DNA of 64,000 nt. Origin: an uncultured Spirochaetales bacterium (lineage in GTDB: Bacteria > Myxococcota_A > UBA9160 > UBA6930). Positions 3,605 through 47,127 of this stretch are shown piece after piece (position 1 is the stretch's first letter; each line of letters begins with the position of its first letter). The notes beneath the pieces were generated by a model that worked only from the letters and a program-made list of their open reading frames with translations, had not been told where the DNA came from and searched no databases. Position numbers and translations under genes: made by a program. The stretch is from assembly GCA_964501435.1 (NCBI GenBank), contig CAZCTH010000005.1:22507-86506 (forward strand). Reading direction: 5' to 3'.

Positions 3605-4338
3605 AGTCTCAGCCCGACGACGAACGCCGCGTCGCTGGCTCCCTCGCCTCGGCTGCGCGCGAGGTCGGCCGTGTCACCTAGGCGCCGGATCCAGCTGAAT
3701 CCGACGTAGGGCGCGAGCTCACGGCGGAGCTCGAAGCGGAGGCGGAGGCCGAGCTCGACGTCGTTGATGCCGCTCCGAGTGCCGAAGGCGTCCGCATCGC
3801 CTGCGGATGCGTTGAGCTCGATCCGCGGCTGCGCGATCACTCGCTGGGTCACGTACCAGTCCGTGGTCGCGGTGATGCGCGCAGAGACGTCTCCTTCGTC
3901 GCTCACGAACAGCGAGGGCTCGAGCTCGATCCGAAACGGGGCGAGTCCCTCGGCGCTCAGTACGGCGTGCGTCCGCTCGCGATTGCGCCCGGGGCCGTAC
4001 ACGACGTCCTGGCGTACGCCGACGAGCAAGTCCCAAAACGGAGCGATCTGCCGGCCGTAGTAGACCGACACCTCGGCATCGCCGGCGCCGCCGGCCATGC
4101 GCGGGTCCCCCTCGGACCTGAGCCAGAACCGATTCGTATCACCGCCGAGCCAGGCCTCGATGTCCCAGCGCGCGAAGTTCGAGTCCTTCTGCCAGCGGTG
4201 CTCGAGCTGATCGACGATGAAGCTCGAGAACAGCGCGCTGTCCTCCTCGGCACGTGCGGCCGTCGCCAAAGCGGCCCCGCCCACGAGCAGGACGAGTGCT
4301 CCAAGGATCCGGCCGACCGTTCCGCCGAGACGAATCAT
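3595..4338 (-). CDS. copB: copper resistance outer-membrane protein CopB/PcoB
   Basis: Signal peptide, then FIVDQLEHRWQKD and WDIEAWLGGDTNRFWLRSEGD, which are typical of CopB. ATGA overlap with the copA stop. Confidence 0.85.
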   Translation of the reverse strand: MIRLGGTVGRILGALVLLVGGAALATAARAEEDSALFSSFIVDQLEHRWQKDSNFARWDIEAWLGGDTNRFWLRSEGDPRMAGGAGDAEVSVYYGRQIAPFWDLLVGVRQDVVYGPGRNRERTHAVLSAEGLAPFRIELEPSLFVSDEGDVSARITATTDWYVTQRVIAQPRIELNASAGDADAFGTRSGINDVELGLRLRFELRRELAPYVGFSWIRRLGDTADLARSRGEGASDAAFVVGLRLWL

Positions 4339-6278
4339 CCGTGGTCACCTTCGTGCGGCGCGACGGAGACGACTCGAAACATGCCCATGTGCATGTGAAA
4401 GAGGAGATGGCAGTGAAAGGCCCAGCTCCCGAGCGCATCCGCCTCGACGAGCACCGTGAGGCGTTCGGCCGGCTTCACGTTCACGGTGTGCTTGCGCGGG
4501 ATCCACTCTCCTGCGCCGTTCTCGAGCTGCATCCACATCCCATGCAAGTGGATCGGATGCTCCATCATCGTGTCGTTCACGAGCGCGAGCCGCAGGAGCT
4601 CGCCGTGCCGGAACGGGATAGGGCCCTTCACCTCTGCGTACTTCACGCCGTCGAAGGACCACATGTATCGCTCCATGTTCCCGGTGAGGTGGAGCTCGAG
4701 CTCTCGATCCGGCTCGCGCTGCGGGCGCGGCACCGTGCTGCGGAGGTCGGTGTACAAGAGAACGCGGGTGCCCGTGTTCTCGAGGCCGGCGCCGGGCTCG
4801 TGAAGTCGGCTGCGCGGCTGCTCCGTCACCGTCGCATTGCCGGGTCCGTGGTGGTCGGGTCCGTGGCGAAAGGGCCGAGGCACGGCGTTCGGTGGGGCTC
4901 CATGACCTGCGTGCTCGCCCGGCGGCGGTGACGGTGCGGCCCCCATGCTTTCGTGATCCGCCATCGCCCCGCTCGTTCGATCGGCGCTCCCCGCCATCGC
5001 CCCGTTGCGCACCTGCGGCGTTGGCGTGGCCATCGCCGAGTGATCGCCGGTCGGGGGCGCAGCCCTCTCATTCACCGCGGGCGAATCCATGCTCATTCCG
5101 GCGTGTTCACCCGCCTCCATCGCCATTCCCATGTCCGCCATCGTTCTCAGGGGGCGCGATCGGCGCTCTGGCAGCGGCGCTTCGAGGCCGAGGCGAGGTG
5201 TTAGGGTGCCCCGCACGTAACCGCTGCGGTCCAAGGTCTCGGCGAAGACGGTGAAGGGGCGTTCCTCGTTCGGCTGAACGATCACGTCGTACGTCTCGGC
5301 GACGGCGATCCGGAGCTCGTCGACGCGAACGGGCGCGACGTTCTGGCCGTCGGCCTGGACGACTTCGAGCGAGAGCCCTGGAATCCGGATGTCGAACGTC
5401 GTCATCGCCGAAGCGTTGATGAGGCGCAGGCGCAGACGCTCGCCCGCCGCGAAGAGGGCGCTCCAGTTCGAAGCGCTCGGGACGCCGTTCATCAGGTACG
5501 TGTACGAGGCGCCGGTCACGTCCGCGAAGTCGGTGGGATCCATGCGCATCGCGGCCCATTCGCGTCGGTCGGCGACTGCCGCGCGAAAGCCGCGCGTACG
5601 AATGTCTCGCGCGAAGTCGCCGAGCGTGCGGCGCTGGAAATTGTCGTACCCGGGACGGCTCTTCAGATCATGGAGCAGCGCGTAGGGGTCCTTGAAGGTC
5701 CAGTCGCTGAGGAGAACGACGTAGTCGCGCTCGTAGTCGAACGGATCGGGCTCGCGCGGATCGATGATGAGGGGCCCGTAGACGCCGGTCTGCTCCTGGA
5801 GGCCCGAGTGGCTGTGGTACCAGTAGGTGCCGCTCTGAACGACGCGGTAGCGGTACGTGAAAGTCTCGCCGGGTCGAATGCCTGGGAAGCTGACGCGAGG
5901 CACGCCGTCCATCTCAGGCGGCACCAATAGGCCGTGCCAGTGGATCGAAGAGTCCTCGTCGAGAGCGTTCGTGACGCGGAGGGTCGCGGTCTCGCCTTCA
6001 CGCAGACGGACGAGGGGGCCCGGGAGCGAGCCGTTGATGCAGGTGACCGCGCCCGGGCGCTCGCCGACCGGAAGCGTTTCTCGGTGGATGCGTAGGTCGA
6101 TCTCGGAACTGGGCGATCCCGCCGACCCTTCGCTGACAGCGTAGGCCGGCAGTAGCTGAACGAGAGAGCTGCCGAGTGCGGCGCTTGCCGCCGTCTTCAA
6201 CAGTGCGCGTCGATTCCACCCGCGAGCGTCTCGAGAAGCCATCGCCGCGAGGGGCTCGCTACGGCTTGTGCGGCGCAT
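4335..6278 (-). CDS. copA: copper-resistance multicopper oxidase CopA/PcoA (Tat-exported)
   Basis: Tat signal RRALLKTAASAALG. Multicopper-oxidase copper-ligand motifs IHWHGL, WYHSHSG, HPIHLHGMW and HCHLLFHMHMGM. Internal Met/His/Gly-rich insert. An alternative start at 6242 (MASRDARGW) is possible. Confidence 0.92.
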   Translation of the reverse strand: MRRTSRSEPLAAMASRDARGWNRRALLKTAASAALGSSLVQLLPAYAVSEGSAGSPSSEIDLRIHRETLPVGERPGAVTCINGSLPGPLVRLREGETATLRVTNALDEDSSIHWHGLLVPPEMDGVPRVSFPGIRPGETFTYRYRVVQSGTYWYHSHSGLQEQTGVYGPLIIDPREPDPFDYERDYVVLLSDWTFKDPYALLHDLKSRPGYDNFQRRTLGDFARDIRTRGFRAAVADRREWAAMRMDPTDFADVTGASYTYLMNGVPSASNWSALFAAGERLRLRLINASAMTTFDIRIPGLSLEVVQADGQNVAPVRVDELRIAVAETYDVIVQPNEERPFTVFAETLDRSGYVRGTLTPRLGLEAPLPERRSRPLRTMADMGMAMEAGEHAGMSMDSPAVNERAAPPTGDHSAMATPTPQVRNGAMAGSADRTSGAMADHESMGAAPSPPPGEHAGHGAPPNAVPRPFRHGPDHHGPGNATVTEQPRSRLHEPGAGLENTGTRVLLYTDLRSTVPRPQREPDRELELHLTGNMERYMWSFDGVKYAEVKGPIPFRHGELLRLALVNDTMMEHPIHLHGMWMQLENGAGEWIPRKHTVNVKPAERLTVLVEADALGSWAFHCHLLFHMHMGMFRVVSVAPHEGDHG

Positions 6279-13855: not shown

Positions 13856-14488
13856 ATGCGCGCGCTCGGAGCGCTACTCGTCGTCGGCTACGTCGTCTCG
13901 GCGGTCCCGTGCGCTGCCGCCCCGGATCCGGACGCATCGGCTCGCGCTGCGGCGGAGGAAGCCACGATTGCGGACTGGCAAGAGCGCGCGCGCGCGCTGT
14001 TTGCGCAGGCCGAAGACGCAGCTCTCCGGCTCGAGGCCGGTCGCCGCGCCTACAAGCGGGCGCGTCAGGGAGGCGATGTCCAAGGGGGCGATCGGCTCGC
14101 CCTGATGACGGAGGTCGCGCGAGCGGAAGCCGACCTTCACGACGCGCGGGCCGGTTTCGCGCGCCTGCAAGAGGAGGCCCGGCGCGCAGACCTACCCCCG
14201 GGCTTTCTCCGCGAGCTCGAGGATGCCGCTTCCTCAGAGGACATCGCGTTCGAGCTGGCCACGGAGGCCGAGACTCCCGACCAGCACTCCACGGTGGCGC
14301 GCAATCTGCGCGCGCGAGCGGTCCGCTATCGCGCGATGGCCGAGCGGCACCGCACACTCGGCCGTAGGTACGCCGACGACGACAGGAGATCGCAGCAAGC
14401 GCACTGCGAACGGCTCGCCGACCTCGAAGAGAAGATGGCGGGACAATACGACCGCCTCGCCGAGGGCCACGAGGAGCACGCGAACTAG
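13856..14488 (+). CDS. secreted helical protein, paralogue A of an unrecognised family
   Basis: 210 aa with a signal peptide. It aligns by eye along its full length with the 15686-16363 product. Shared C-terminal module: ETPDQH..RNLRARAVRYRAMAERHRTLGRRY..HCERLADLEEKMAGQYDRLAEGHEEHA. Confidence 0.65.
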   Translation: MRALGALLVVGYVVSAVPCAAAPDPDASARAAAEEATIADWQERARALFAQAEDAALRLEAGRRAYKRARQGGDVQGGDRLALMTEVARAEADLHDARAGFARLQEEARRADLPPGFLRELEDAASSEDIAFELATEAETPDQHSTVARNLRARAVRYRAMAERHRTLGRRYADDDRRSQQAHCERLADLEEKMAGQYDRLAEGHEEHAN

Positions 14489-14513
14489 CCCCAGTCGATG
14501 GTCGTTGCGCGGC

Positions 14514-15611
14514 TCACGTCTCCGCAAAGTGGAGCGCTGGCCTTCCAGCGCAGGCAGCGGGATCGTGCTCGAAGCGATCGCGACAATTGAGTGAGCAGAA
14601 GTAGAACGTCGCCTCCTCGTGCACCGATTGCGCGCGCGCACGCTCGGGGTTGATGACCATCCCGCAAACGGGATCGAAGTGGAGACTGAGTGCGCGGTCG
14701 GCCTGCGCGCGGTGCGCTGGCGGAGACTTCATCAGCTTCTCGATCGTCGGAAGCGCTGCCTCGGTCGCGCGTCGCCCAGCCGCGACGGCTTCGCTCACGC
14801 GATGGAAGTCGCGCAGGCCGATGTCCCCTAGCTCCGGGGCGATGAGCAGCTCCGGCCCGATCATGGCCTCCGCCAGCGCCGTCTGATGGTCGAGGACGAT
14901 CTCGGCGGCTCGGGCGAGTAGTTCCAACGCGATCTTCGCGGTCGCTGGGTTCGGGACGAAGCCGCCGAGCCTCGAAAACCACGGCGTGACGCGCCAATTG
15001 AGCTGCGGCATTCGCCGATCTCGCGCTGCTCCAACCTTGACGGCGACGACGACGTCGGGATCTGCGATCGCGGCTACGTCGACTGGAATCAAGTTGAGGA
15101 GCGCGCCGTCAACGAGCCAACGCGTGCCAACTTTCACAGGCGGCAGCACGCCGGGCACTGCGCAGGTCGCCTCGACGGCGGGCCGCAAGGCGCCGGCGTG
15201 GATCACGACTTGCGTCCCCGCCTCGAGGTCGACAGCAGTCACAGCGAGAGGGGTCTTCAGTTCGGCAAAGGTCGCAGGGAGGGCATTCGCGGCAGCGCCG
15301 AAGATTGACGACCAAGAGACCAAGCCACCCGGGATGAACCAGCGCGGGAAGCGGAAGTCTTTGGCGAGGTCGGCGATCTCACGGGCATCGAGACCTGCCG
15401 CACTGAGGGCGCCGATCAACCCTCCCATACTGCTGCCGGCAAGGAAGTCCACCCGGATGCCTTCGCGCTCGAGCACGTCAAGCACTCCGACGTGGGCGAG
15501 GCCCCGGGCTCCTCCGCCGCCAAGGGCAAGCGCGAGGCGAGCGCGGGTTCGCGTCTCCGCACCTCCCTCTCGCCCAGCTCCGACGGAAATGAGTCTCGCG
15601 CGCGGCGTCAT
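14514..15611 (-). CDS. patatin-like phospholipase fused to a C-terminal YHS/TRASH metal-binding domain
   Basis: Patatin motifs LALGGGGARGLAHVGV (oxyanion Gly-rich loop) and AGSSMGGLIG (GxSxG). The C-terminus HFDPVCGMVINPE...ATFYFCSLNCRDRFEHDP is a YHS-type motif. Confidence 0.85.
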   Translation of the reverse strand: MTPRARLISVGAGREGGAETRTRARLALALGGGGARGLAHVGVLDVLEREGIRVDFLAGSSMGGLIGALSAAGLDAREIADLAKDFRFPRWFIPGGLVSWSSIFGAAANALPATFAELKTPLAVTAVDLEAGTQVVIHAGALRPAVEATCAVPGVLPPVKVGTRWLVDGALLNLIPVDVAAIADPDVVVAVKVGAARDRRMPQLNWRVTPWFSRLGGFVPNPATAKIALELLARAAEIVLDHQTALAEAMIGPELLIAPELGDIGLRDFHRVSEAVAAGRRATEAALPTIEKLMKSPPAHRAQADRALSLHFDPVCGMVINPERARAQSVHEEATFYFCSLNCRDRFEHDPAACAGRPALHFAET

Positions 15612-15685: not shown

Positions 15686-16363
15686 CTATTGTTCGGCGTG
15701 CGCCTCGTGACCCTCGGCGAGTCGCTCGTACTGGCCGGCGAGCTCCTCCTCGATGTCGCCGAGCCGTGCGCAATGCTCGCTCAGTCGCTCGCCGTCGCGT
15801 CCCCCCATCGCCGCATAGCCCGTGGCCATGTCCCGGTGACGCCGCGCTTGGGCGCGGTGCCGAGCCGCCCGCTCGCGAAAGTTGAGGGCTGCAGCGCGAT
15901 GCTGTTCGGGCGTCTCGGCCGCGGCCGACAGCTCGACCGCGAGATCGGGGGCGCGGTAGTCCTCGAACTCGCGGAGTGCGTCCGCCACGGCGTCGCCGCG
16001 CGCTTCCTCGAACAGATCCTCGAGCTCCTCCTGCGCATCGATGACGTCGGCCTCTGCCTGCGCAGCCTCGGTCAGGACCGTGAGCTTTTCCTCCCCATGA
16101 GCGCGTCGATTGCCACGCAACCGAGAGTACGCGCGGCGACTCTCCTCGAGACGAGCGGTCGCCCGTTCGAGCCTGGATACGGTTCCGCGCGCGCGCGCGC
16201 GAAGAGTCTCGCGGAGCTCATCGTCCGAGTGACTGTCTGCCAAACCGCCGAGGGGCTGGAGAAGGACGGCACATGTTAGGGAAACTGCGCACGCGGCGCC
16301 GCTGAGCGAGACTCCATGGCGAAGTGCCGCCGGCCTCCGCACCACTCGGTGGATCGACATCAT
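15686..16363 (-). CDS. secreted helical protein, paralogue B
   Basis: Starts at MMSIHRVV, with the ATG overlapping the upstream stop (ATGA). C-terminal module: ETPEQHRAAALNFRERAARHRAQARRHRDMATGY..HCARLGDIEEELAGQYERLAEGHEAHA. Confidence 0.65.
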   Translation of the reverse strand: MMSIHRVVRRPAALRHGVSLSGAACAVSLTCAVLLQPLGGLADSHSDDELRETLRARARGTVSRLERATARLEESRRAYSRLRGNRRAHGEEKLTVLTEAAQAEADVIDAQEELEDLFEEARGDAVADALREFEDYRAPDLAVELSAAAETPEQHRAAALNFRERAARHRAQARRHRDMATGYAAMGGRDGERLSEHCARLGDIEEELAGQYERLAEGHEAHAEQ

Positions 16364-16800
16364 CGACGGCTCGGAGCGGACTGCGGCTCGACCTTTTTCA
16401 GTAGCTGACCCTCGCGCGCCCAATGCTGAATGAGGCCAGCGCTCAAGTGGTCGAGCGCGTCGAGCGCCCGCTGCTTCTGCCCAGCCTCGATCGCCTGTCG
16501 AACCGCGAGCACGTCTTTGGCGAAGTGCTCATGCGTATCGAGCAGACCGGCGACCTCAGCTCCGGTGCTGCCAGAAGCGCCGTGCGCAGCTTCGGAAGAG
16601 GCGTGCGTCGATCGGTCCGGGCAGGAGCGGCCAGCTGGTGCATGGAGGAGCTCACCCTTGCCTCCGTAGACGCACGATCCGCCGACGTCGCGGTACGGAT
16701 TTCCCTGCAGCGGCCGATCTCGCACTTGCTGGCCGAGCGCAGCGGCCGCAAGCATTAGGCCACCGGCGACGGATGCTAGGACTGCGCGCTCACGCTTCAT
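16360..16800 (-). CDS. secreted hypothetical protein
   Basis: 146 aa starting at MKRERAVLASVAGGLMLAAAALG, with a GAGGAG RBS. It overlaps the upstream gene by 11 nt. The C-terminal helical segment is LLDTHEHFAKDVLAVRQAIEAGQ...HLSAGLIQHW. Confidence 0.55.
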   Translation of the reverse strand: MKRERAVLASVAGGLMLAAAALGQQVRDRPLQGNPYRDVGGSCVYGGKGELLHAPAGRSCPDRSTHASSEAAHGASGSTGAEVAGLLDTHEHFAKDVLAVRQAIEAGQKQRALDALDHLSAGLIQHWAREGQLLKKVEPQSAPSRR

Positions 16801-17797
16801 CGCGGATCTCCTCGCGCGTCTGCGCATCATGAGAAGCAGTCGGGGCCGGCTGGACCACCACGAGCGTGCCAACCATTCCGGCCTCGGTGTGCCCCGGGAT
16901 CGTGCAAAGCACCTCATACGAGCCGGGCGTATCGAGCTGGTAGGTGCCCGCGTCGGTGCCCTTCGGTCCGGCGTGCAGGTGGATGAGGTCGCCTCCGCCC
17001 GGCGCGCGCACGAGCAGCGAGTGCTCGACCAGGGCCTCGCGATTGTCGAGCTCGATGCGCGTCGCGATCCCTGCGCGCAGCTCGAGCCTACGCGGGACGA
17101 ACGCGAATTCCGTCGACTTCACGACGAGCGTCTCCGCGGCCGGCACGTCCACCGCCGCGAGCGGCTTCACGCGGTGTTCGTGGCCCGGCAGACGGCTCAT
17201 CGCGCCGTGGTCGTGTGCGCTCCCACTGTGCTGCTCGTGTGCCGCCCCGCCCTCGAGCGCTCCTGACGGGTATTGGGAGCGCAGGAGCTCGAGCACCGCG
17301 TTCAGCTGCTCGAGCGCAGCGCTCGTGCGCGCGGTGTCGCCTGCATCGGCCGCCTCGTGCAGCTTGCCCGAGACCGCAGGAATCTGCTTGACGGCTGACT
17401 CGGCTCGCGCGCGCTGCTCGGCGGTCAAGTCCGGGCTCTTCTCGAGCATCGCTCGCCCAAGCGGCTCGAGAGCCTCCGACTTCTCGTGGATGCTCGCGAG
17501 CTGGCCGTTCGTGACATCCGCGGCAATCGAGTCGCGCGTGCTTTGCAGCCTTGCCCAGGTCGACGCAAGGTCGGCGGCATCCGCGGGGCCCGCCGAGCCA
17601 TGCGCTTGCTCACCGGCCATCTCGTCGTGCATCGAACCGTCGCCGTGCCCATCGCCATTGTGCTCGCCGCGGCCGCCCTGCACATCGGCGGCGGGCGCCG
17701 CAGGCGGCGCTGCCGACGGCTCCGTTTCGCTCGACCCACAGGCGAGCGCAAACGCCAAAGGCAGTGCAGTCCAGAACAAGGTTTCTCTCGAGATCAT
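16790..17797 (-). CDS. lipoprotein with a His-rich helical N-domain and a C-terminal cupredoxin (type-1 copper) domain
   Basis: Lipobox LAFALACGS and an AGGAGA RBS. The C-terminal cupredoxin ligands are ...VEHSLLV... and VLCTIPGHTEAGMVG (Cys-x2-Gly-His-x4-Met). Confidence 0.75.
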   Translation of the reverse strand: MISRETLFWTALPLAFALACGSSETEPSAAPPAAPAADVQGGRGEHNGDGHGDGSMHDEMAGEQAHGSAGPADAADLASTWARLQSTRDSIAADVTNGQLASIHEKSEALEPLGRAMLEKSPDLTAEQRARAESAVKQIPAVSGKLHEAADAGDTARTSAALEQLNAVLELLRSQYPSGALEGGAAHEQHSGSAHDHGAMSRLPGHEHRVKPLAAVDVPAAETLVVKSTEFAFVPRRLELRAGIATRIELDNREALVEHSLLVRAPGGGDLIHLHAGPKGTDAGTYQLDTPGSYEVLCTIPGHTEAGMVGTLVVVQPAPTASHDAQTREEIRDEA

Positions 17798-17813
17798 CGA
17801 AGTTCTCCTGGTG

Positions 17814-20800
17814 TTAGGGAAGGGAAGGCGCCCGTACAGCATTCGCTGAATGGGCCGCTGTCGCGTGCGACGCGCGCGCCTCGGCGACCCAGCGCTCGGC
17901 GGCCTTGCGCCCGAAGCGCAGGAACACGGTCGGGGTCACCGCCATGTCGAGGATCGTCGAGCTGACGAGGCCGCCGAGAATCACGACGGCGACCGGGTAG
18001 AGAATCTCCTTGCCTGGCTCGCCGGCCGCGAGAACGAGCGGGATCAGTGCGAGACCGGCCGTGAGCGCGGTCATCGTTACCGGCACGAGGCGCTCGAGCG
18101 AGCCGCGCACAACCATCTGCTCGCCGAACGCCTCGCCCTCGTACTCCATCAGGTGGAGGTAGTGCGAGATCATCATGATCGTGTTGCGCGACGCGATCCC
18201 GGCGAGCGTAATCAGTCCGACGAGCGTTGCGATCGAGACCTTCCCGACGAGCAGCCACGTGAGCGCAATGCCGCCGACGAAGGCGAGCGGAATGTTGAGG
18301 AGAATCTGCGCGACGATCGCGCCGCTCCGGAAGTGCGTGTAAAGGATCAGCCAGATGACGCCGAGGGTGAACGCCGACAGGATCGCGATGAGGCGCGAGG
18401 CCGCCTGTTGGCTCTGGAACTGGCCCTCGAACCGAATCGAGTAGCCCTGCGGCAAAGGCACGCTGGCGGCGGTGCGTTGCATCTCTGCGACCGCCGAACC
18501 GAGGTCGCGGCCCGAGACGTTGGCGGAGACGACGATGCGCCGGCGCACATCCTCGCGCTGGATCACGTTCGGCCCGAGCCCTTCGCGAACGTCCGCGAGT
18601 GCCGCGAGCGGAACCCGCACGCCTTCGCCCGCATCCACCAGCGCTTCGCGGATCGCATCCGCGTCGCGGCGCGCGTCGCTGCCGTAGCGAACGAACAGCG
18701 CGAAGCTCCGATCCCCATCGAGGATCTGGCCCACGACGCGCCCGTTGAGTGCCGTCTCGAGACGCTCGGCGACTTCTCCCACGCGACTGCCGAGCGCCAT
18801 CGCACGGTCGCGACGCAGCGCGATATTGAGCTGAGGAATCAGCACCTGCTTCTCGACCTGGAGATCGACGACTCCCGGGATCGCGCCAAACGCGCGCTCG
18901 AGCTCGGCCGCCTTCGTGCGCAGCACGGTGAGGTCGGGCCCGAAGATCTTGACGGCGACCTGCGCGCGTACGCCAGAAAGCAAGTGATCGAGGCGATGTG
19001 AAATGGGCTGACCGATGTTGACCGCGATTCCGGGAATCTCGGCGAGCTGCTCTCGAAGGTCGGCGAGGATCTCCTCGCGCGAGCGTTCGGATTCTCTCAA
19101 GTCGACATCGATCTCCGTGTAGTGGACACCCTCGGCGTGTTCGTCGAGCTCGGCGCGGCCCGTGCGCCGTCCGGTCGAGATGACCTCGGGCACGCTCAAG
19201 ATCAGCTTCTCGGCGATCGCGCCGATGCGATTCGACTCGGACAGGGACGTACCGGGCGCGGCGAGCACGTTGATGGTCGCCGTGCCCTCATTGAACTCGG
19301 GCAAGAACTCGCTTCCCATGCCGGGGAAGAGCGAGAACGAGCCGGCCACGAGCGCACCCGTGATCGCAAGCACGAGGACCGGGCTCCGAAGCGCAGGCCC
19401 CAGCAAGTAGCGGCGGTCGAGCGACTTGAGGCCTCGGACCACGAAGCCTTCGTGCTCGTCCTCCATCCGCTTCATGCGCGGCAGCAAGTAAGAGCAAAGC
19501 GCGGGAATCACGGTGAGCGAAACCACGAAGGAAGCGGCCATGGCGACGATCGTCGCAACACCGATCGGAGCGAAGAGCCGCCCCTCGATGCCGCCCAGGC
19601 CGAAGAGCGGAACGAACACGAGTATGACGAGCAGCGTCGCGTAGAGGATCGAGTTGCGGACCTCTGACGACGCGGAGGCGATGACCCTCACCGCCGGCTG
19701 CGGATTGGGAGAGTGCCGGTTCTCGCGCAAGCGGCGAAACACGTTCTCGACATCGACGATCGCGTCGTCGACGACCATGCCGATCGCGACGGCGAGGCCA
19801 CCCAGGGTCATCGTATTGATCGAGATGTCGGCGAACCGAAACACCAGCGCGGTGACGACGAACGATAGGGGGATCGCCGTGAGCGTGATGAACGTGGTGC
19901 GGAAGTTCAGCAGGAACAGGAAGAGGACGATCACGACCATGATGGCGCCATCGCGAATGGCCTCTTCGACGTTGGCAATCGCCGCCTCGATGAAGCGCGC
20001 CTGCTGGAAGAGCGTCGAGATCTCGACGTCAGCGGGAAGCCCCGTGCGCAGCTCCGCGAGGGCTGCCTCGACGTCACGCGTCAATGCGATCGTGTCGACA
20101 CCCGGCTGCTTCTGAACGGAGATGATCACGGCGGGCTTCCCCGAGACTCCGGCGTCGCCGCGCATGACTTGGCGACCCCATGCGACATCGGCGACGTCGC
20201 GCAGGAGAATTGGGGCGCCATCCCGCTGCGCCACCACCGTATCGGCGATCTCCGGAGCCGAGGCTGTGCGCGCGATGTTTCGGACCAGGGCCTCCTGGTG
20301 GGCCGCCTCTAAGAAGCCCCCCGGTGTGTTCGACTGCGCGGCGGCGGCCGCGGCCTCGACATCGTCGAGCGAGACGTTGAATGCCGCCATTCGCTCCGGA
20401 GAGGCGAGAACCTGGAGCTGGCGAACGCCGCCGCCAATCGGAATGACCTGCGCGACACCTGGTAGCGTGAGTAGCCGCTGTCGGATCTCCCAGTCGGCGA
20501 TGGACCGGAGCTCCATCGGCGGTGTTGCGCCGTCCGTGCTCGAAAGCCCGATCAGCAGAATCTCGCCCATGATCGACGAGACCGGCCCGAGGACGGGCGA
20601 GGCCTCCGCGGGAAGCAGCTGGGCCGCGAGCTGAACTCGCTCCTGCACGAGCTGGCGAGCTCGGTAGATGTCGGTGCCCCAGTCGAAGTCGACATAGACG
20701 ATCGAGAGCCCAATACCCGAGCTCGACCGCACGCGGCGAACGCCGGGGGCGCCGTTCACGGACGTCTCGAGCGGCCGCGTGACGAGGGTCTCAACCTCTT

Positions 20801-20975
20801 CGGGGGCGAGGCCCGGTGCCTCAGTCAGAATCGTGACGAGCGGTCGGTTGAGGTCCGGGAAAACATCCACCGGAAGCTGCTGCACGACGACGGCCCCGTA
20901 GACGAGGAGGAGCACAGACGCAGCGAGAACGAAGAGACGATTGCGGAGAGAGAATTCGATCAGCCGATTGAGCAT
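17814..20975 (-). CDS. heavy-metal efflux RND permease (CusA/CzcA family)
   Basis: 1053 aa. N-terminus MLNRLIEFSLRNRLFVLAA...LPVDVFPDLNRPLVTILTEAPGLAPEEVE, with the 12-TM RND architecture. Confidence 0.93.
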   Translation of the reverse strand: MLNRLIEFSLRNRLFVLAASVLLLVYGAVVVQQLPVDVFPDLNRPLVTILTEAPGLAPEEVETLVTRPLETSVNGAPGVRRVRSSSGIGLSIVYVDFDWGTDIYRARQLVQERVQLAAQLLPAEASPVLGPVSSIMGEILLIGLSSTDGATPPMELRSIADWEIRQRLLTLPGVAQVIPIGGGVRQLQVLASPERMAAFNVSLDDVEAAAAAAQSNTPGGFLEAAHQEALVRNIARTASAPEIADTVVAQRDGAPILLRDVADVAWGRQVMRGDAGVSGKPAVIISVQKQPGVDTIALTRDVEAALAELRTGLPADVEISTLFQQARFIEAAIANVEEAIRDGAIMVVIVLFLFLLNFRTTFITLTAIPLSFVVTALVFRFADISINTMTLGGLAVAIGMVVDDAIVDVENVFRRLRENRHSPNPQPAVRVIASASSEVRNSILYATLLVILVFVPLFGLGGIEGRLFAPIGVATIVAMAASFVVSLTVIPALCSYLLPRMKRMEDEHEGFVVRGLKSLDRRYLLGPALRSPVLVLAITGALVAGSFSLFPGMGSEFLPEFNEGTATINVLAAPGTSLSESNRIGAIAEKLILSVPEVISTGRRTGRAELDEHAEGVHYTEIDVDLRESERSREEILADLREQLAEIPGIAVNIGQPISHRLDHLLSGVRAQVAVKIFGPDLTVLRTKAAELERAFGAIPGVVDLQVEKQVLIPQLNIALRRDRAMALGSRVGEVAERLETALNGRVVGQILDGDRSFALFVRYGSDARRDADAIREALVDAGEGVRVPLAALADVREGLGPNVIQREDVRRRIVVSANVSGRDLGSAVAEMQRTAASVPLPQGYSIRFEGQFQSQQAASRLIAILSAFTLGVIWLILYTHFRSGAIVAQILLNIPLAFVGGIALTWLLVGKVSIATLVGLITLAGIASRNTIMMISHYLHLMEYEGEAFGEQMVVRGSLERLVPVTMTALTAGLALIPLVLAAGEPGKEILYPVAVVILGGLVSSTILDMAVTPTVFLRFGRKAAERWVAEARASHATAAHSANAVRAPSLP

Positions 20976-20978
20976 GGT

Positions 20979-22079
20979 TCACGCCACCACGCGGCGGCGC
21001 CGATTTCGCCAGATCACGATGCTCACGCCGGCGATCGCGGCGATCACCCCGGCGACGATCCAGACGAGTCGCGGCGCGCCCGCATCTCGGTCCGTCCCAA
21101 CTGACGCCGCGGCGTCAGCGGCATGCTCCGTCGCTTCTTCTTCTGGCGCTGGCGGCAGAAACTGCAGCTGGTAGCCGCCAGCGGTAACGACGCGTTCCCC
21201 AGGTACGAGACCGTCGAGGACCTCGGCGAAGCGATCGTCGCTCGCTCCCCGCGCGATCGGCCGCCGCTCGAAGCGCGTCGCATCGCGGTCGCTCTCGACG
21301 AACACGAAGAGCGAGCCGAACTCGCCGAGGATCGCGCTTCGCGGCACGGTGAGGGCTGACGAGGAGCGCTCTGTCACGAGCGCAATCGAAGCCTGCATGT
21401 GCGGCCTGAATGCGCCGTCGGCGTTCCTCAAGCGCACGAACACGGGGATCGAGCGAGAGTTGACGTCGAGCTGCCCACCGACCCGCTCGACCACGCCCTC
21501 GAACGTGCGATCCGGAAAGGCAGGAACTACGACGCGGGCCACCTGCCCCTCGCGGACTCGCGCGACCTGGCCCTCGAAGACGCGTCCGATCGCGAGCACT
21601 TCTTCGAGGTCTGCGATCTCGAGCAGATGCGCGTTCGGCTCAACTGCGTCCCCCGCGACGATGTGCCGATCGATCACCACGCCGCTCAGCGGCGCTGCGT
21701 AGGTCACGCGCGGGGGAGGATCGCCGAGGAGGAGGCTTTCGACGGTGACGACGGGCTGACCGCGCCGCACCGAATCGCCCTCTGCGACGAGCACCGATGC
21801 GACGCGCCCCGCGATCCGGCTTGCGACAGCACCCGATCGCTCAGGCAACGCCACGATCTCGCCGGTGAGGTTGAGTACCGTCTCGAGTGGGCGAAGCTCG
21901 GCTGCTGCGACTTTCAGCTCGAGGTTCCTGCGAGCCTCCGCCGAAACCTCGACCTCGTATCGCTCGGCGCCGGCTGCAGCCTGTGCGCCGGGGGCTTCGC
22001 TGTGCCCTTCGTGCGCTTGAGCGACCGAAGTGGCGAGCAAAGCGACGAGCGAAACAGTGAGCGCAAGCTGGCGGTTCAT
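20979..22079 (-). CDS. efflux RND periplasmic adaptor (CusB/CzcB-like MFP)
   Basis: Starts at MNRQLALTVSLVALLA (signal). It shows a lipoyl/beta-barrel pattern (TGEIVALPERSGAVASRIAGRV...GDSVRRGQPVV). ATGA overlap with the TolC-family stop. The track ORF's 5' extension is rejected. Confidence 0.85.
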   Translation of the reverse strand: MNRQLALTVSLVALLATSVAQAHEGHSEAPGAQAAAGAERYEVEVSAEARRNLELKVAAAELRPLETVLNLTGEIVALPERSGAVASRIAGRVASVLVAEGDSVRRGQPVVTVESLLLGDPPPRVTYAAPLSGVVIDRHIVAGDAVEPNAHLLEIADLEEVLAIGRVFEGQVARVREGQVARVVVPAFPDRTFEGVVERVGGQLDVNSRSIPVFVRLRNADGAFRPHMQASIALVTERSSSALTVPRSAILGEFGSLFVFVESDRDATRFERRPIARGASDDRFAEVLDGLVPGERVVTAGGYQLQFLPPAPEEEATEHAADAAASVGTDRDAGAPRLVWIVAGVIAAIAGVSIVIWRNRRRRVVA

Positions 22080-23395
22080 TGGCGCGATTCCTCTTCTTGC
22101 ATGGACTGCAGCAGCGGGCTCGCAGCTGCGGCGGCTTCGAGGTCGACCTCGGCGCGGCGAAGCGCACCCAGGGTTTCGGCGAGACGCGCGGAGGTCTCGG
22201 CGAGTTGCCGCTGGCCCTGCACGACGTCGCTGATCGGCGTTAGGCCTTGTGCGTAGCCGCGGCGGAGTAGCTCCACATTGCGGCGCGCTCGGCCAAGCGC
22301 GTCGATCTGGAACGTCTCCGCGAGTACTCGGAGACGTGCGGTGCGCTGGGCTGCCGAGGCGACCTCCGCTCGGGCGGCCTGCTCCGCAGCCGCCAGCCGT
22401 GCCTCGGTGGAGCGTTCCCGCGCGAGTGCCGATGCCACTCGGCCTTGGTTTCGGTTCCAGAGCGGCAGAGGGATTCGAAGCGAGAGGGCGAGCAGGTTGT
22501 CTCGATCCTTCAGTACAAGATTCGCGGAATCGATCGCACTGTTCTCGCGCTGGTACGCCGCGCCCACGGACCAATCCTCCCAGACCTCCGCGCGTGCGAG
22601 CCGCGCCTCTGCGCGCGCACGCGCGGCCTCCGACCGCAACCGCCTCAAGTCGGGCCTTGCGACAAGGGCCTTCGCAGTGAGGGACTCAACGGAAGGGTCA
22701 GCGAGGAGACTCGCATCGAGCGAATCCTTGATTTCCAGCGCTGAGTCGGGCGGTCGATTCAGGAGTCGGTTCAATGTGAACAGAGCGGCAGCGCGCTCGA
22801 GACGCAGCAGCTCGCGCTCTTGCTCGAGCGAGGACACTTCGATCGCGAGCAGGTTCACGTCTGCTTCTGAGGTCTCTGCCGCCTGAAAGCGCCGGACCGA
22901 GATGTGCGAGAGCTCCTGCGTCGCCTTCAATACCTCGTCGCGCGCGGCGATCGCGCGCTCGAGCGCGAGTACCGAGACTGCGGTGCTCTGCGCCTCGGCA
23001 ACCAGCTGCAGTGCCAAGAGATCGGAGTCGCGCTTCGCGATTCTGACGTCGCTGCGCGCAACGGCACGCGCGCGCTCGATGCGTCCCGCGATGGGCACGG
23101 GCTGGGAGAAGCCTAGGCGTCCACTGCGATCGCCCTGGGATCCGAGAATGCTGCCCTCCACCCACTCAGCGTCGGCCTCCGGGTTGGGCCAAAGGCCTGC
23201 CTGCGTCAGATCACCGCGGGCCGCGTCGATCTCGGCGCCGGCTGCGCGCAGGGCGGGATTTGCCCGCAGAACCTCGGCGGCGATCTCGCGCACGCCGAGC
23301 GAAGAAGAGGCTACGGGTTCCTCTGCGCAGGCAGGGCTCAGCGAGAGAACTGTCGAGAGAGCGGACGCGAGAGCGGCCACGGAAACGCGGTGCAT
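22076..23395 (-). CDS. TolC-family outer-membrane efflux protein (CusC/CzcC-like)
   Basis: 439 aa with a signal peptide and the two-repeat helical pattern typical of OMF proteins. Confidence 0.85.
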   Translation of the reverse strand: MHRVSVAALASALSTVLSLSPACAEEPVASSSLGVREIAAEVLRANPALRAAGAEIDAARGDLTQAGLWPNPEADAEWVEGSILGSQGDRSGRLGFSQPVPIAGRIERARAVARSDVRIAKRDSDLLALQLVAEAQSTAVSVLALERAIAARDEVLKATQELSHISVRRFQAAETSEADVNLLAIEVSSLEQERELLRLERAAALFTLNRLLNRPPDSALEIKDSLDASLLADPSVESLTAKALVARPDLRRLRSEAARARAEARLARAEVWEDWSVGAAYQRENSAIDSANLVLKDRDNLLALSLRIPLPLWNRNQGRVASALARERSTEARLAAAEQAARAEVASAAQRTARLRVLAETFQIDALGRARRNVELLRRGYAQGLTPISDVVQGQRQLAETSARLAETLGALRRAEVDLEAAAAASPLLQSMQEEESRQ

Positions 23396-24090: not shown

Positions 24091-24453
24091 TCAGCGCTTC
24101 GCCTCGGCTTCGTGATCCGCTGCGAGCTTCTCGTATTCTTGGGCTACGCCCTCGAACTGCTTCGCCAGAGCGTCGCAGTGCGCCTTCATCTTCTGCCGCT
24201 CGAAGAGCTTCCCACCAGCGTAGTTCTTTCCCATCGAGCGGTGGCTTGCGGCAGTCGCCCGCGCCTCGGCGGCCTTCCCGCGATAATGCTCGGCGAGGGC
24301 CTTGTGCTCGGCGGGAGTGCTCGCGAACTCGACCAGCAGGGCCTCGATCGACGAATCCCTGCTGCCGTGGCCCGCGTGCGCTCCCTCTTGGGCGATGGCC
24401 GCACCACCCAGCACACAGAGTCCGAAGATTGCTGCGATTCCAAGCGTTCTCAC
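24091..24453 (-). CDS. secreted helical protein, paralogue C (C-terminal module only)
   Basis: GTG 24453 is preceded by AAGGAG at a 7-nt spacing. It has a signal peptide (VRTLGIAAIFGLCVLGGAAIA). Module: STPAEHKALAEHYRGKAAEARATAASHRSMGKNY..HCDALAKQFEGVAQEYEKLAADHEAEA. Confidence 0.6.
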   Translation of the reverse strand: MRTLGIAAIFGLCVLGGAAIAQEGAHAGHGSRDSSIEALLVEFASTPAEHKALAEHYRGKAAEARATAASHRSMGKNYAGGKLFERQKMKAHCDALAKQFEGVAQEYEKLAADHEAEAKR

Positions 24454-24548
24454 GAGTCTTCTCCTTGCGGTTGTTTTGGGAATGGCGGGGCGCAACGCGG
24501 CGCGGCCGAGGATGGGTCAAAGCAATCGGCGTGCCTGAGTCCTTCTGA

Positions 24549-24678: not shown

Positions 24679-26538
24679 CTAGAGGTAGGCGCTCGCCGCG
24701 TACTGCTGGACCATACGATGGGTGTTGAAAAAGGACGCGTTCAAGGCGATCGCCTGCCGCATCACATCGATCCAGCCGGAGCGATTCCCGTAGTACAGCG
24801 GGACGATCACCTGCTCGAGCTTCGCGTAGAGGTCGCTGGCGTCGCGAGCATCGATTTCGGCACCTGCGGCACTGGCGGCATCGTCCGTGCCGATCGACCA
24901 GCCTGTGACGCCTTCGATGTGCCCCTCGATCCACCAGCCGTCCAAGACGCTGAGGCTCGGGACGCCGTTGTGCGCCGCCTTCATCCCGGAAGTGCCCGAG
25001 GCTTCCAGCGGCCGAGCGGGCGTGTTGAGCCAAAGGTCTACTCCGGCCGTGAGGCAGCGAGCGAGTTCGACGTCGTAGTTTTCCAGGTAGACGACTCGAA
25101 CCGATCCGGCGAGCTCTCGGGCAACGCGAAACACCCCGCGAATCAGGTCTTTGCCCGTCGCGTCGCGCGGATGTGCCTTGCCCGCCAAGACCAGCTGGAT
25201 GGGGCCCGCGAGCCGGGCGATGGAGCGAAGGCGATCGACGTCGCGAAAGAGAAGCTGCATCCGCTTGTACTCGGTTGCGCGGCGCGCGAACCCGATTGTT
25301 AGGGAGTCGCCCGCGAGATCGACGCCGGTTCTCGATCGCACCCGATCGATCAAGGCCGCCTTCGCCTCGAGGTGGGCGCTCCAGATCTCTAAGCGCGGAA
25401 TTCGGAGCGCATTGCGCAGCAGATAGGAATCCGACATCCACCCGGGCAGGTGTCGATCGTAAACGCGCGCGAAGCTCTCCGCGGTCCAGGTGACGGAGTG
25501 CACACCGTTAGTAACCGCATCGAACGTGTGTCCGGGAAAGAGGCTGCGAGATACCTCCCCGTGCTTCTTGGCGACGCCGTTGGTGTACTGGCTCAGATTC
25601 ATCGCGAGCAGCGTCAGGTTGAAGCGGCCTGCACCGCCGAACATCTCGAGCTGGTCCCTCGGCAACGGCGTCTCGAGAAGCTCTGCCAGGAGCTCATAGG
25701 CGAACTGGTCGTGACCTGCGGGAACCGGTGTGTGCGTTGTGAACACGCATTGGCTCCGCACACTGGCATAGGCTTCGTCATCTCCCGAAACCTTTTTCTC
25801 CCCGCGAAGGAGCTCGAGCGTGAGCAACGCCGCATGCCCTTCGTTCATGTGAAAACGCTCGACGTGCGCGTACCCGAGTTCGCGAAGCATGCGGAGGCCG
25901 CCGATCCCGAGCACGATCTCTTGGGCAAGCCGGTAGCGCTCGTCGCCCCCGTAGAGATGCGCCGTAAGGGACCTGTCTTCTGGCGTGTTGCTTGGGCAAT
26001 CCGTGTCGAGCAGGAGCAGCGGGACGACGTAGCCGGTCGCACCGCGAATCTCGTACTGCCAAGCGCGCACTTCGACGGCGCGTGAGGCGATGCGCACTTC
26101 GACTCTGGCCTCGGCGCAACGAGCGAACTGGGCCGGATCCCAGGCCACCTCGTGCTCGCTCTGGTTCCCGTCGGCGTCGAGCCGCTGCTCGAAGTAGCCC
26201 TTGCGGTGCACGAGCGACACACCGACGACGGGGATTCGGAGATCCGCGCAGGATCGCAGTGCATCGGCCGCGAGGACCCCGAGGCCCCCACTGTACGTGG
26301 GCATCCTCGGGTGGACTGCTGCCTCCATCGTGAAGTAGGCGATGCGACGGCGCGCAGGATCGATGCGCGCTCCCTCGTCGCGGGTGAGGGCGCCGTAACG
26401 TTCCGGCTGGAAGAGGAACTTCTGGAGGCAGAGCTTCGAGCAGAACGCGACCGCCCTCCCCTCCCGCAGCAGCGTCAGGCTCTCCTTCGGCTCGACCTCC
26501 ATGCCGCAGACCGGATCTCTCATGCAGCGCACTCCCAT
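24679..26538 (-). CDS. glgP: alpha-glucan (maltodextrin/glycogen) phosphorylase, GT35, with an N-terminal YHS/TRASH domain
   Basis: N-terminus (MGVRC)MRDPVCGMEVEPKESLTLLREGRAVAFCSKLCLQKF, then IAYFTMEAAVHPRMPTYSGGLGVLAAD and EASGTSGMKAAHNG (PLP Lys region). The start is ATG 26538 or 26523; the latter has a GGGAG RBS. Confidence 0.88.
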   Translation of the reverse strand: MGVRCMRDPVCGMEVEPKESLTLLREGRAVAFCSKLCLQKFLFQPERYGALTRDEGARIDPARRRIAYFTMEAAVHPRMPTYSGGLGVLAADALRSCADLRIPVVGVSLVHRKGYFEQRLDADGNQSEHEVAWDPAQFARCAEARVEVRIASRAVEVRAWQYEIRGATGYVVPLLLLDTDCPSNTPEDRSLTAHLYGGDERYRLAQEIVLGIGGLRMLRELGYAHVERFHMNEGHAALLTLELLRGEKKVSGDDEAYASVRSQCVFTTHTPVPAGHDQFAYELLAELLETPLPRDQLEMFGGAGRFNLTLLAMNLSQYTNGVAKKHGEVSRSLFPGHTFDAVTNGVHSVTWTAESFARVYDRHLPGWMSDSYLLRNALRIPRLEIWSAHLEAKAALIDRVRSRTGVDLAGDSLTIGFARRATEYKRMQLLFRDVDRLRSIARLAGPIQLVLAGKAHPRDATGKDLIRGVFRVARELAGSVRVVYLENYDVELARCLTAGVDLWLNTPARPLEASGTSGMKAAHNGVPSLSVLDGWWIEGHIEGVTGWSIGTDDAASAAGAEIDARDASDLYAKLEQVIVPLYYGNRSGWIDVMRQAIALNASFFNTHRMVQQYAASAYL

Positions 26539-35856: not shown

Positions 35857-35859
35857 CCC

Positions 35860-46900: not shown

Positions 46901-47126
46901 CGGCGAGGAATGTGGTGACGATCGGGTACGTGATCTGGTCTTCCACGAGATTCGGGCTGCGCCCCATCCACTCCGTGAAGACGATCACCTGTGTGTCCGA
47001 TAGATCCGGGAGCGCGTCGAGCGGCGTGGTCCGCAGCGACCACGCACCCCAGACGGCGAGCACCGCGACCGCCAGCGCCGTGAAGGCGCGCTGATGCGCG
47101 CACAGCTCGATCAGGCGCGCGAGCAT
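43908..47126 (-). CDS. cusA: Cu(I)/Ag(I)-type heavy-metal efflux RND permease CusA
   Basis: 1072 aa. The N-terminal ~140 residues closely parallel E. coli CusA as I recall it (PLDALPDLSDTQVIVFTEW..., VRGFTMFGMSFVYVIFEDGTDIYWARSRVLEYL, GPDATGVGWVFEYAL). Confidence 0.93.
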   Translation of the reverse strand: MLARLIELCAHQRAFTALAVAVLAVWGAWSLRTTPLDALPDLSDTQVIVFTEWMGRSPNLVEDQITYPIVTTFLAAPKVKVVRGFTMFGMSFVYVIFEDGTDIYWARSRVLEYLVKLQGRLPPGVAPQIGPDATGVGWVFEYALVDETGTHDLQQLRSFQDWHLRYWLSSVPGVAEVASLGGYEKEYQVEIDPIRLQAFDLSISDIAAAIRMSNGDVGGRVVELAQHEYAVRGRGYLQSREAIAKIVVTTDARGTPVQLGDIARVQVGGNIRRGFAELDGTGETVGGIVVMRFGENALEVIERVKAKLAEMQSAMPAGVRVVTTYDRSEVINASVRTLSTSLLQVMAIVCATVVVFLFHFRSALVPAITLPIAVLLAFIPMAAMGLTTNIMSLAGIIIAIGDMVDAAVVLVENAHRKLEEAGPSADRVRVVIDSAKELGPPIFGSLLLIAVAFLPVFTLEAQEGRLFKPLAYTKTLAMAFAALLSVTLVPALMVWLVRGRIRAEAENPITRILRAAYRPVLRWCLVHRKGLVVSVAAGIVATLIPFFRLGSEFMPPLYEGSVLFMPISVPGISIEEAKRLVQEQDRRLKEIPEVTRVFGKAGRAETPTDPAPLSMIETVITLRPQEEWRAGLTYEDLLAEMNRAVATPGQQAAWTMPIKARVDMLTTGIRTPIGIKVFGTDLEQIARLAESLERILRDVPGTRSVYAERELGGFFIDFVPDRDAIARYGLRSMDVLEVVETAIGGLDVDTTIEGRERYRINVRYPRELRDTPEELARVLVPIPVQRSGAIDVGIPPGPAGMAEGPAESGGGMGMPRRSAQVRLGQLGTISATMGPPMIKNEEGLLTGWVYVDTERSDLGGYVEDAKRKVSEQLVLPPGYFLRWTGQYEFLERMEARMRIVVPLTVGLILLILYVNFGGLPQALLVLFSVPCAAMGSIWLLWGLGFNTSVAVWVGLIGLLGIAAETASIMVIYLDEGYRRWLEAGRLQTTADLIEMALESGSQRVRPLLMTVGMNIVGLVPVMFDTGIGSDVAKRIAAPLWGGLLSLTLLTLAVIPALYVIWRSRALPSAPAE

Positions 47127-47127
47127 C

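Follow-up and report, generated by a model that had tools for sequence, protein, structure and literature searches.

A patatin-like hydrolase with a C-terminal YHS module encoded in metal-efflux loci of uncultured bacteria

Introduction

Why should a lipid hydrolase end in a small cysteine-containing module whose nearest relatives sit on heavy-metal ATPases, and why should its gene be the last in a cluster of metal-efflux genes? This question is raised by a 64,000-nucleotide stretch of DNA from an uncultured Spirochaetales bacterium (contig CAZCTH010000005.1, positions 22,507 to 86,506; the window), in which a minus-strand gene encodes a patatin-like protein with a C-terminal YHS domain (patatin-YHS). 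The bacterial patatins described so far are mostly secreted toxins, suicide effectors of cyclic oligonucleotide-based anti-phage signalling systems (CBASS), or RssA-type housekeeping proteins that have not been characterised, and patatin enzymes, CapV and CapE among them, are commonly inactive until a cofactor binds. A preliminary description, made from the letters of the window, had taken the protein for a metal-regulated or metal-targeted lipase. The reading that we favour, and to which we give roughly even credence, is that patatin-YHS acts in the cytoplasm as a lipase whose activity is gated when Cu(I) or Ag(I) binds at its YHS site.

The Patatin-YHS Protein and Its Catalytic Module

The gene and the parts of its product are located as follows:

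14514..15611, minus strand: patatin-YHS gene, 365 amino acids (aa); open reading frame (ORF) with an ATG start, Pfam Patatin and YHS matches both over the cut-off; last gene of a co-directional minus-strand cluster
14730..15545, minus strand: RssA-like patatin catalytic module, residues 23-294, delimited by the NCBIfam RssA alignment, by conservation, and by an AlphaFold2 model with Foldseek
14676..14729, minus strand: tether, residues 295-312, variable in sequence and fixed in length
14553..14675, minus strand: YHS/TRASH-type module, residues 313-353, with the putative ligands D313, C316, C339 and C343 and the invariant M318 (Pfam, 33.5 bits)

The G+C content of the window is uniform at about 67%, and spurious overlapping ORFs are therefore frequent. 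The ORF at 14514..15611 is nevertheless a real gene, because the same product has been called identically on three independent metagenome contigs and has more than 100 homolog clusters (57-79% identity). In Pfam profile searches, Patatin (PF01734) matched residues 28-180 with 82.1 bits (cut-off 27.7) and YHS (PF04945) matched residues 313-353 with 33.5 bits (cut-off 30.3; E = 4.2e-8). These matches bear out two statements of the preliminary description, namely that the protein is a patatin with GGGGARG and GSSMG motifs, which lie at residues 31-37 and 59-63, and that it ends in a YHS domain, whose profile score stays above the family threshold. In a hydropathy scan, the N-terminus of patatin-YHS showed no hydrophobic segment, which makes a cytoplasmic location probable; its maximum 19-residue hydropathy of 1.61 is located on an internal strand, and a secreted or membrane-anchored lipase was rejected on these grounds.

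The window protein has all the sequence and fold hallmarks of a patatin-like hydrolase. Across 42 aligned fused homologs, which share 55-76% identity with the window protein, the oxyanion loop G31-G-G-G-A-R-G37 is kept in every homolog that reaches the N-terminus, Ser61 of the nucleophile elbow G59-S-S61-M-G63 is found in 40/40 non-gap sequences, and both D168 and G169 of the catalytic Asp motif D168-G169-A170, which the preliminary description did not mention, are invariant (42/42). Judged from these residues, patatin-YHS is apparently a catalytically intact acyl-ester hydrolase that relies on the dyad Ser61-Asp168 and on an oxyanion loop of the form GGGxxRG. Its best curated match is E. coli RssA (YchK), a member of the 'NTE family' (COG1752-type): the NCBIfam profile NF007623 (RssA), of about 300 positions, aligns to residues 23-294 with 111.4 bits. 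Since the equivalog model demands 272 bits, the protein can be called RssA-like but cannot be counted as an ortholog of RssA. The papers surveyed by title and abstract gave no functional characterisation of RssA itself.

The AlphaFold2 model (mean pLDDT 80.7, pTM 0.79) shows a confident patatin fold, and Foldseek identified PlpD, the type Vd patatin of Pseudomonas aeruginosa (PDB 5FYA/5FQU), as the closest solved fold (TM 0.81, 29% identity, E = 3e-19; target-normalised TM 0.81-0.82, 28-30% identity, E ~1e-19), followed by CapV, CapE and plant patatin. PlpD leaves the cell by way of a beta-barrel translocator to which it is fused, whereas the window protein has no export signal and carries a metal module instead. 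RssA, in turn, has no YHS domain, and three elements set the fused clade apart when it is compared with 104 standalone relatives. These are an aromatic loop at residues 84-104 (F86, F88, P89, F92, G95, W100, F104), which is kept in the fused clade but not in the standalone relatives; Cys150, which is conserved in the fused clade and present in 18/104 standalone proteins; and an insert of about 24 residues (~202-225), which is mostly gaps in the standalone proteins. These elements are candidates for a surface that contacts the YHS module or that binds the membrane.

The YHS Module and Its Tether

Ten residues of the YHS module (D313, P314, V315, C316, M318, F338, C339, S340, C343, F347) are invariant in 42/42 homologs, and the spacing D-x2-C-x22-C-x3-C is constant in 119/120 best homologs. 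The putative ligand set fits the [D/C]-x2-C-x19-22-C-x3-C pattern defined in PMC4626032. In the AlphaFold2 model, the module consists of strands 327-331 and 334-338 and a helix at 341-349 (pLDDT 73-89), a small two-hairpin-plus-helix arrangement that may represent the treble-clef-like fold of YHS/TRASH domains. When the YHS region was compared with the PDB by sequence, there was no significant match (the best being phenol hydroxylase, E = 1.1). The nearest YHS relatives (45-67% identity) are found on P1B heavy-metal ATPases with HMA, HMBD or cupredoxin domains, in which YHS modules form terminal (N- or C-terminal) metal-binding domains.

The preliminary description had placed the YHS domain about 70 residues downstream of the catalytic domain, and this spacing needs to be corrected: the module starts 133 residues past the end of the Pfam patatin envelope, but the RssA-like module reaches to about residue 294, and the YHS module hence follows after a tether of about 18 residues. 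The distance from GLRDF to DPVC is 48 residues in 86/96 homologs and 45-47 in the other 10, while the N-terminal extension ranges from 1 to 70 residues and the tail that follows the final Cys comprises 12 to 58. The constant length of the tether, together with the clade-specific elements of the catalytic domain, suggests that the two modules are coupled within the molecule.

The sole enzyme-YHS fusion that we found with biochemical evidence for a copper response conferred by the YHS domain is the class IIIc adenylyl cyclase of Mycobacterium phlei. Cu2+ at 1-10 µM activates only the YHS-containing form of this enzyme (Linder 2015, PMC4626032); it stimulates the full-length protein sixfold and turns it on with Mg2+, while the catalytic domain alone is unaffected, and a metal site formed by D178/C181/C204/C208 has been proposed (PMC4626032). 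Patatin-YHS resembles this cyclase in its order of catalytic domain, short tether and C-terminal YHS module, and in an identical D-x2-C-x22-C-x3-C arrangement. It differs in its output, in the length of its tether (~18 residues versus 8-11 in the cyclase), and in that the cyclase has an actinobacterial host and no reported Cus linkage. In sequence, the YHS module studied here is most closely related to the YHS/TRASH modules found in P1B copper ATPases and in the archaeal proteins CopR and CopM; those modules serve transport, trafficking or transcription, and not a lipid hydrolase. In archaeal CopR, the TRASH domain mediates the response to Cu and Ag, and its deletion blunts that response (PMC7830388). 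By analogy, patatin-YHS is in its logic most like the cyclase-YHS copper sensor and the ligand-gated patatins.

The same module can be read in another way, namely as a constitutive structural zinc ribbon or as a thiol-based redox switch and not as a sensor of metal load. Zinc would either be bound at all times and stabilise or oligomerise the protein, or it would be freed, and the lipase thereby switched, when the Cys3 site is oxidised by reactive oxygen species, by electrophiles or through Cu(II) catalysis. TRASH/YHS domains belong to the treble-clef zinc-finger group, and ribosomal L24e holds a structural metal at the equivalent residues (PMC4626032). YHS modules are also fused to an alpha-glucan phosphorylase, to TreT and to SLOG cluster 4 proteins (see below), for which a metal role is not obvious and a general stress or redox input would fit, and several patatin-YHS loci are without metal pumps. 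A structural role would, however, leave both the linkage to Cus pumps and the kinship with the YHS modules of heavy-metal ATPases unexplained, and an invariant methionine such as Met318, near Cys316, is typical of Cu(I)/Ag(I) sites and not of Zn sites. We consider the zinc-ribbon or redox reading unlikely.

Distribution of the Fusion

In a collection of 5.8 billion sequences, PF04945 and PF01734 occur together in 119/120 of the best-matching clusters; counted within these best 120 clusters, public metagenomes thus hold at least 119 fusion clusters at 90% identity. All carriers are metagenomes or metagenome-assembled genomes (MAGs) of uncultured organisms. Among 185,579 species-representative genomes, about 20 encode the full-length fusion, MAGs throughout. 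The hosts comprise Gemmatimonadales/Gemmatimonadaceae, Myxococcales, Anaeromyxobacteraceae, Sandaracinaceae, 'Deltaproteobacteria' and Desulfurellales, and further Candidatus Binatia, Steroidobacteraceae, Burkholderiales and Ectothiorhodospiraceae.

In a library of representatives at 50% identity, the full-length fusion shrinks to a handful of entries (P0069, P0121, P0124, P0125) plus fragments. After these come standalone patatins (~280 aa, 33-48% identity), which align to residues 23-295 alone, and the RssA-like group as a whole numbers 12,844 representatives at E <1e-10 in the same library. Because the fused representatives are so few, and are followed by standalone patatins that align only to residues 23-295, the fusion is, as judged from this pattern of matches, a single narrow clade of single origin within the RssA-like patatins. 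A protein search of the PLSDB plasmids returned no patatin-YHS match.

The preliminary description knew of no metal-binding patatin fusion. This holds for the searchable literature, in which we found no mention of a YHS domain together with a patatin, and for functional annotation, the fusion clusters being named in their sources only 'patatin-like phospholipase family protein' or 'NTE family protein'; the cluster count given above shows that the fusion is not rare. Papers that treat patatin-like proteins along with copper resistance looked unrelated by their titles and abstracts. Of the two findings named in the preliminary description as refuting it, a C-terminus scoring below the YHS threshold was not observed, and an architecture both common and already functionally annotated was observed by half, since the fusion is common but carries no functional annotation. 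Patatin-YHS combines a known catalytic fold with a known sensor module; it is the combination and its genomic setting that have not been described previously.

Genomic Context and the Identity of the Metal

The genes of the window that bear on the role of patatin-YHS are the following:

22076..23395, minus strand: outer-membrane efflux protein (OEP), first large gene of the cluster; Pfam OEP 122 bits
20979..22574, minus strand: CusB/CzcB-type membrane-fusion protein (MFP), longest ORF (366 aa on related contigs); HlyD_D23 106.6 bits, TIGR01730 113.9 bits
17814..20975, minus strand: pump of the CusA/CzcA family of heavy-metal-efflux resistance-nodulation-division (HME-RND) proteins, variant subtype; TIGR00914 773 bits (cut-off 701)
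16790..17842, minus strand: cupredoxin with a CopI/plastocyanin-like C-terminal copper site; Pfam Copper-bind 22.7 bits versus 21.2, CopI 29 bits, below cut-off
16360-16917 (ORF), minus strand: called gene of 146 aa (orf146), in the patatin-YHS cluster
15686..16423, minus strand: paralog B, exported helical protein with a His-rich C-terminus, directly upstream of patatin-YHS (74-bp gap); no Pfam match
13856..14488, plus strand: paralog A of the same family, convergent with patatin-YHS (25-bp gap); NF047526 21.7 bits, below cut-off
24091..24495, minus strand: ORF for a third, short paralog of the LIC_10421-like exported family, with a signal-like N-terminus
4335..6278, minus strand: CopA-type copper-resistance multicopper oxidase (MCO); TIGR01480 775 bits (cut-off 479)
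43908..49601, minus strand: second RND operon (OEP, CusB-like protein, RND pump), assigned by Pfam; pump triad M/M/M

The cluster runs on the minus strand in the order OEP, MFP, RND pump, cupredoxin, orf146, paralog B and, as its last gene, patatin-YHS. A scan of positions 13700-24700 for promoters and terminators yielded nothing over the shuffled background, and the operon boundaries are therefore inferred from spacing and strand alone. The best PDB match of the pump at 17814..20975 is CusA (482 bits); ZneA reaches 432 bits. Paralogs A and B are 49% identical (E = 1e-30), and a hydropathy scan found signal-like, hydrophobic N-termini in both. All three exported paralogs resemble LIC_10421 weakly and share the conserved C-terminal motif '...HC..L...E....Y..LA..HE.HA'; as a guess, they may have a role in the periplasm that is related to metals.

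To see the gene in a wider setting, all ORFs in flanks of up to 10 kb were clustered for 28 independent patatin-YHS loci, to which we refer by L numbers. Neighbours recur as follows:

RND pump: 17/28 loci
Membrane-fusion protein: 14/28 loci
Outer-membrane factor: 9-10/28 loci
Exported LIC_10421-like protein of ~120 aa: 9/28 loci
Sigma54 response regulator: 8/28 loci
Sensor kinase: 7/28 loci
P-type ATPases: 7/28 loci
SLOG-cluster4 proteins, several of them fused to YHS: 6/28 loci
c-type cytochromes: 6/28 loci
DUF411: 5/28 loci
Multicopper oxidase: 4/28 loci

Genes for MCO, cupredoxin, DUF411, DUF2933, CDF and P-type ATPase proteins recur near patatin-YHS, and the RND pump is the most frequent partner. 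A genome usually has no more than a few HME-RND operons, and on this base rate 17/28 would lie far above the expectation for a randomly placed gene. The sole locus of a standalone RssA-like relative that was examined (L030) has no pump.

The partner pumps were scored against the segment of E. coli CusA that spans the Cu(I)/Ag(I) relay, at positions M573/M623/M672. The triad reads M/M/M in 12 of them (L009, L012, L013, L020, L021, L022, L024, L026, L027, L029, L091, L092). By this residue criterion, the usual partner across the family is a Cus-type copper/silver exporter. The pump of L008 (2030-5302), which is 57% identical to the window pump at 17814-20975, has N/S/H at these positions. Both of these pumps adjoin patatin-YHS and genes for copper proteins, and they may represent an HME-RND subtype with a different metal site.

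Efflux genes as neighbours also lend themselves to the reading that the YHS module handles metal or targets the enzyme, either by exchanging Cu(I) with a P1B ATPase or a Cus component or by docking on it, so that the lipase would be placed at the efflux machinery. YHS is a common N- or C-terminal metal-binding domain of P1B ATPases, P-type ATPases are encoded in 7/28 loci, and small stand-alone YHS proteins are encoded between the pump and patatin-YHS in L006/L012, L013, L017 and L020. No partner is common to all loci, though, and the fixed tether and the clade-specific catalytic elements suggest a coupling inside the molecule. We regard such a handling or targeting function as quite improbable.

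A role of patatin-YHS as an anti-phage or conflict effector, i.e., as a ligand-gated, membrane-destroying patatin like CapV and CapE of CBASS that is accompanied by SLOG and restriction-like neighbours, appears to us highly improbable. Foldseek places CapV and CapE right after PlpD, and these patatins are inactive until a ligand binds, which is the logic proposed here; SLOG cluster 4 proteins adjoin patatin-YHS in 6/28 loci, and a 443-aa gene for a restriction-enzyme-like protein is a neighbour in the window and in three Gemmatimonad loci. The context is dominated by metal efflux, however, and no plasmid homolog was found. In CapV and CapE, the lipase itself binds the ligand, a cyclic nucleotide, and becomes active by forming filaments, whereas no CD-NTase, other nucleotide cyclase or defence sensor was detected among the neighbours in the window and in nine Pfam-annotated loci. 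Assignment as a CBASS effector was also rejected by profile: NF041079 (CBASS_lipase) scored 24.1 bits versus 200 and covered residues 28-82 only, and the PADLOC profiles PDLC00755-758 gave matches of 20-29 bits confined to residues 26-85, the region of the nucleophile elbow.

A Proposed Mechanism of Metal Gating

For a lipase gated by metal at its YHS site, the following sequence of events can be envisioned. Soft metal would build up in the cytoplasm, Cu(I) or Ag(I) being the most probable candidates, and would bind to the YHS module. The metal-loaded module would alter its contact with the catalytic domain, possibly via the aromatic loop 84-104 and the insert at ~202-225, and the lipase activity would thereby be switched, probably on, as can be surmised by analogy with the Cu-activated cyclase-YHS of M. 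phlei. Lipid hydrolysis would in this way be coupled post-translationally to the same stress that the products of the neighbouring genes (efflux pumps, multicopper oxidase, cupredoxin) handle. Candidate substrates are phospholipid of the inner membrane, acyl chains that have been oxidised, and stored lipid, and hydrolysis could serve to remodel or repair the inner membrane or to mobilise stored lipid as a supply of energy.

Several points weigh against this gating mechanism and need to be carefully considered. The binding of a metal, its identity, the direction of the regulation, the substrate and the physiological role are all inferred. With regard to the YHS module itself, the single-sequence score is marginal (33.5 versus 30.3 bits); chance is excluded for this assignment because PF04945 is found on 119/120 of the best homolog clusters and the ligands are invariant in 42/42 homologs. 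Linker residues 303-308 have pLDDT values <50 in the AlphaFold2 model, and docking of the YHS module on the active site or a lid is hypothetical. In crystals of toluene-4-monooxygenase, the YHS domain is metal-free (PMC4626032), and the activation of the M. phlei cyclase by Cu2+ could be due to the oxidation of thiols and not to metal binding. With regard to the genomic setting, about 11/28 loci have no pump within 10 kb; several of these are contigs of 3-5 kb, but L004, L014, L019, L089 and L090 are pump-free despite ample flank, and several loci point instead to carbohydrate-reserve genes. Finally, the pump adjacent to patatin-YHS in the window has N/Y/H at the positions of CusA Met573/623/672. 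The expectation that it is a Cus-type copper pump was dropped for this reason, the metal of this particular operon is therefore uncertain, and the argument for copper rests on the other loci, on the multicopper oxidase, on the cupredoxin and on the second pump of the window, whose M/M/M triad lies 28 kb from patatin-YHS.

Against these points stands a link to metal, as the preliminary description had suspected, that is supported indirectly but strongly by the invariant D-x2-C-x22-C-x3-C with the spacing of the M. phlei enzyme, by the relatives on P1B ATPases, by RND pumps in 17/28 loci and by the 12 M/M/M triads. The lipase may be regulated by the metal, and a metal-targeted enzyme, in the sense of its localisation, cannot at present be told apart from a metal-regulated one.

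Other YHS Fusions and the Carbohydrate Connection

A hidden Markov model built from the YHS region of the patatin-YHS clade detects exactly two YHS modules in the window, that of patatin-YHS and that of the following gene:

24679..26523, minus strand: YHS + alpha-glucan phosphorylase (YHS-GlgP), 614 aa, with an N-terminal YHS domain; Pfam YHS 33.5 bits and Phosphorylase, TIGR02094 560 bits

YHS-GlgP carries its YHS domain (MRDPVCGMEVEP...) at the N-terminus, and the 614-aa product is an exact database entry. This fusion is present in 116/120 top clusters, including NC10/Methylomirabilis, Binatia and Planctomycetes, and we found no description of it in the literature searched. In 9/28 loci, the 10 kb around patatin-YHS hold further ORFs with a YHS module; among these are YHS-fused proteins of SLOG cluster 4, which directly follow patatin-YHS in L013, L014 and L089. 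Proteins of SLOG cluster 4 (LDcluster4/LOG-like), several with a C-terminal YHS, are encoded immediately downstream of patatin-YHS in loci of the Binatia type and in others (L013 11251-12141, L014 10965-11918, L089 10123-10953, L090 9947-10720). The window itself has a LOG/LDcluster4 protein without YHS at 39439-40155 (minus strand), about 24 kb from patatin-YHS. No literature on LDcluster4 was found, and a search for the combination of SLOG, patatin and TRASH turned up nothing relevant. A TreT-type trehalose synthase (GT4) with a C-terminal YHS is encoded by an Actinomycetes MAG (L086 8711-10219).

We tentatively suggest, with clearly less than even confidence, that YHS is a general portable allosteric input that places unrelated metabolic enzymes under post-translational control by Cu(I)/Ag(I) or by a linked thiol stress. 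The set controlled in this manner may comprise the patatin lipase, the alpha-glucan phosphorylase, SLOG/LOG-type nucleotide enzymes, TreT and the known adenylyl cyclase.

The carbohydrate enzymes give rise to a further reading that retains the metal gate but changes the substrate: stored neutral lipid would be hydrolysed as by ATGL-type patatins, alongside the action of the YHS-glycogen phosphorylase, in a YHS-gated release of carbon and energy under stress. The window holds YHS-GlgP, two GH57 proteins, PFK, phosphoketolase, acetate kinase, PEP synthase and G6PD; in L091, patatin-YHS has its start within an overlapping GH65 phosphorylase gene; GH65, G6PD and 6PGD flank it in L004, as do CBM48, NTP_transferase and GH57 in L089; and YHS-GlgP is itself a widespread fusion. 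Yet the closest relatives of patatin-YHS in sequence and structure are RssA-like patatins and phospholipases A of the PlpD type, not triacylglycerol lipases, genes for lipid storage (WS/DGAT, phasins) did not turn up in the scanned neighbourhoods, and carbohydrate genes recur less than RND pumps in the unbiased count over 28 loci. Such a mobilisation of reserves is, in our view, unlikely. In the window, PEP synthase, two GH57, PFK, acetate kinase, phosphoketolase and G6PD are encoded at 27410-39330 and 49266-51227, where they are interleaved with the two RND operons, and a type-II P-type ATPase (41204-43900) lies amid carbon and glycogen genes.

Further Features of the Window

At 23480-23869 (minus strand), a short way upstream of the OEP gene, lies the gene for an exported protein of 129 aa that is rich in His (AHHEQAPAAGHGHGDSHD...). 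A DUF2933 domain is found at 7268-8140 (minus strand), and DUF2933 also adjoins patatin-YHS in L009. The segment 8449-12384 (minus strand) holds a cluster of genes for cytochrome c, a Rieske protein (on related contigs) and a cytochrome b/c fusion beside metal genes; a 974-aa ORF with a weak porin-like match accompanies it, and in L089 a cytochrome c/Rieske/cytochrome b arrangement is likewise situated upstream of patatin-YHS. The 443-aa protein at 12442-13773 (plus strand) has a C-terminal region like that of NmeDI_C/type II restriction enzymes (PADLOC REase_II, 37 bits), and it is kept at 61-74% identity beside patatin-YHS in the Gemmatimonad loci L015 (3132-4406), L017 (3233-4516) and L020 (11043-11366), which points to a Gemmatimonadota-like genome as the possible source of the window.

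Significance

The idea of a metal-gated lipase is concrete, and it can be tested directly with the recombinant protein. If it is true, patatin-YHS would be the first lipase that is gated directly by a metal ion, with a built-in metal-site regulator encoded inside copper/silver efflux loci. Fusions of YHS with enzymes would then extend from one biochemically tested case to the further enzyme classes of this study, at least four in number, and a simple sequence rule for the prediction of metal-responsive enzymes would follow. For the bacteria that carry the fusion, copper stress would be tied to the turnover of membrane lipids. Should YHS also prove to be a general input module, patatin-YHS may supply the lipid arm of a 'copper stimulon without transcription factors', as a metal-gated phospholipase acting on the inner membrane, in remodelling or repair, at the time when metal is cleared by the Cus pumps.

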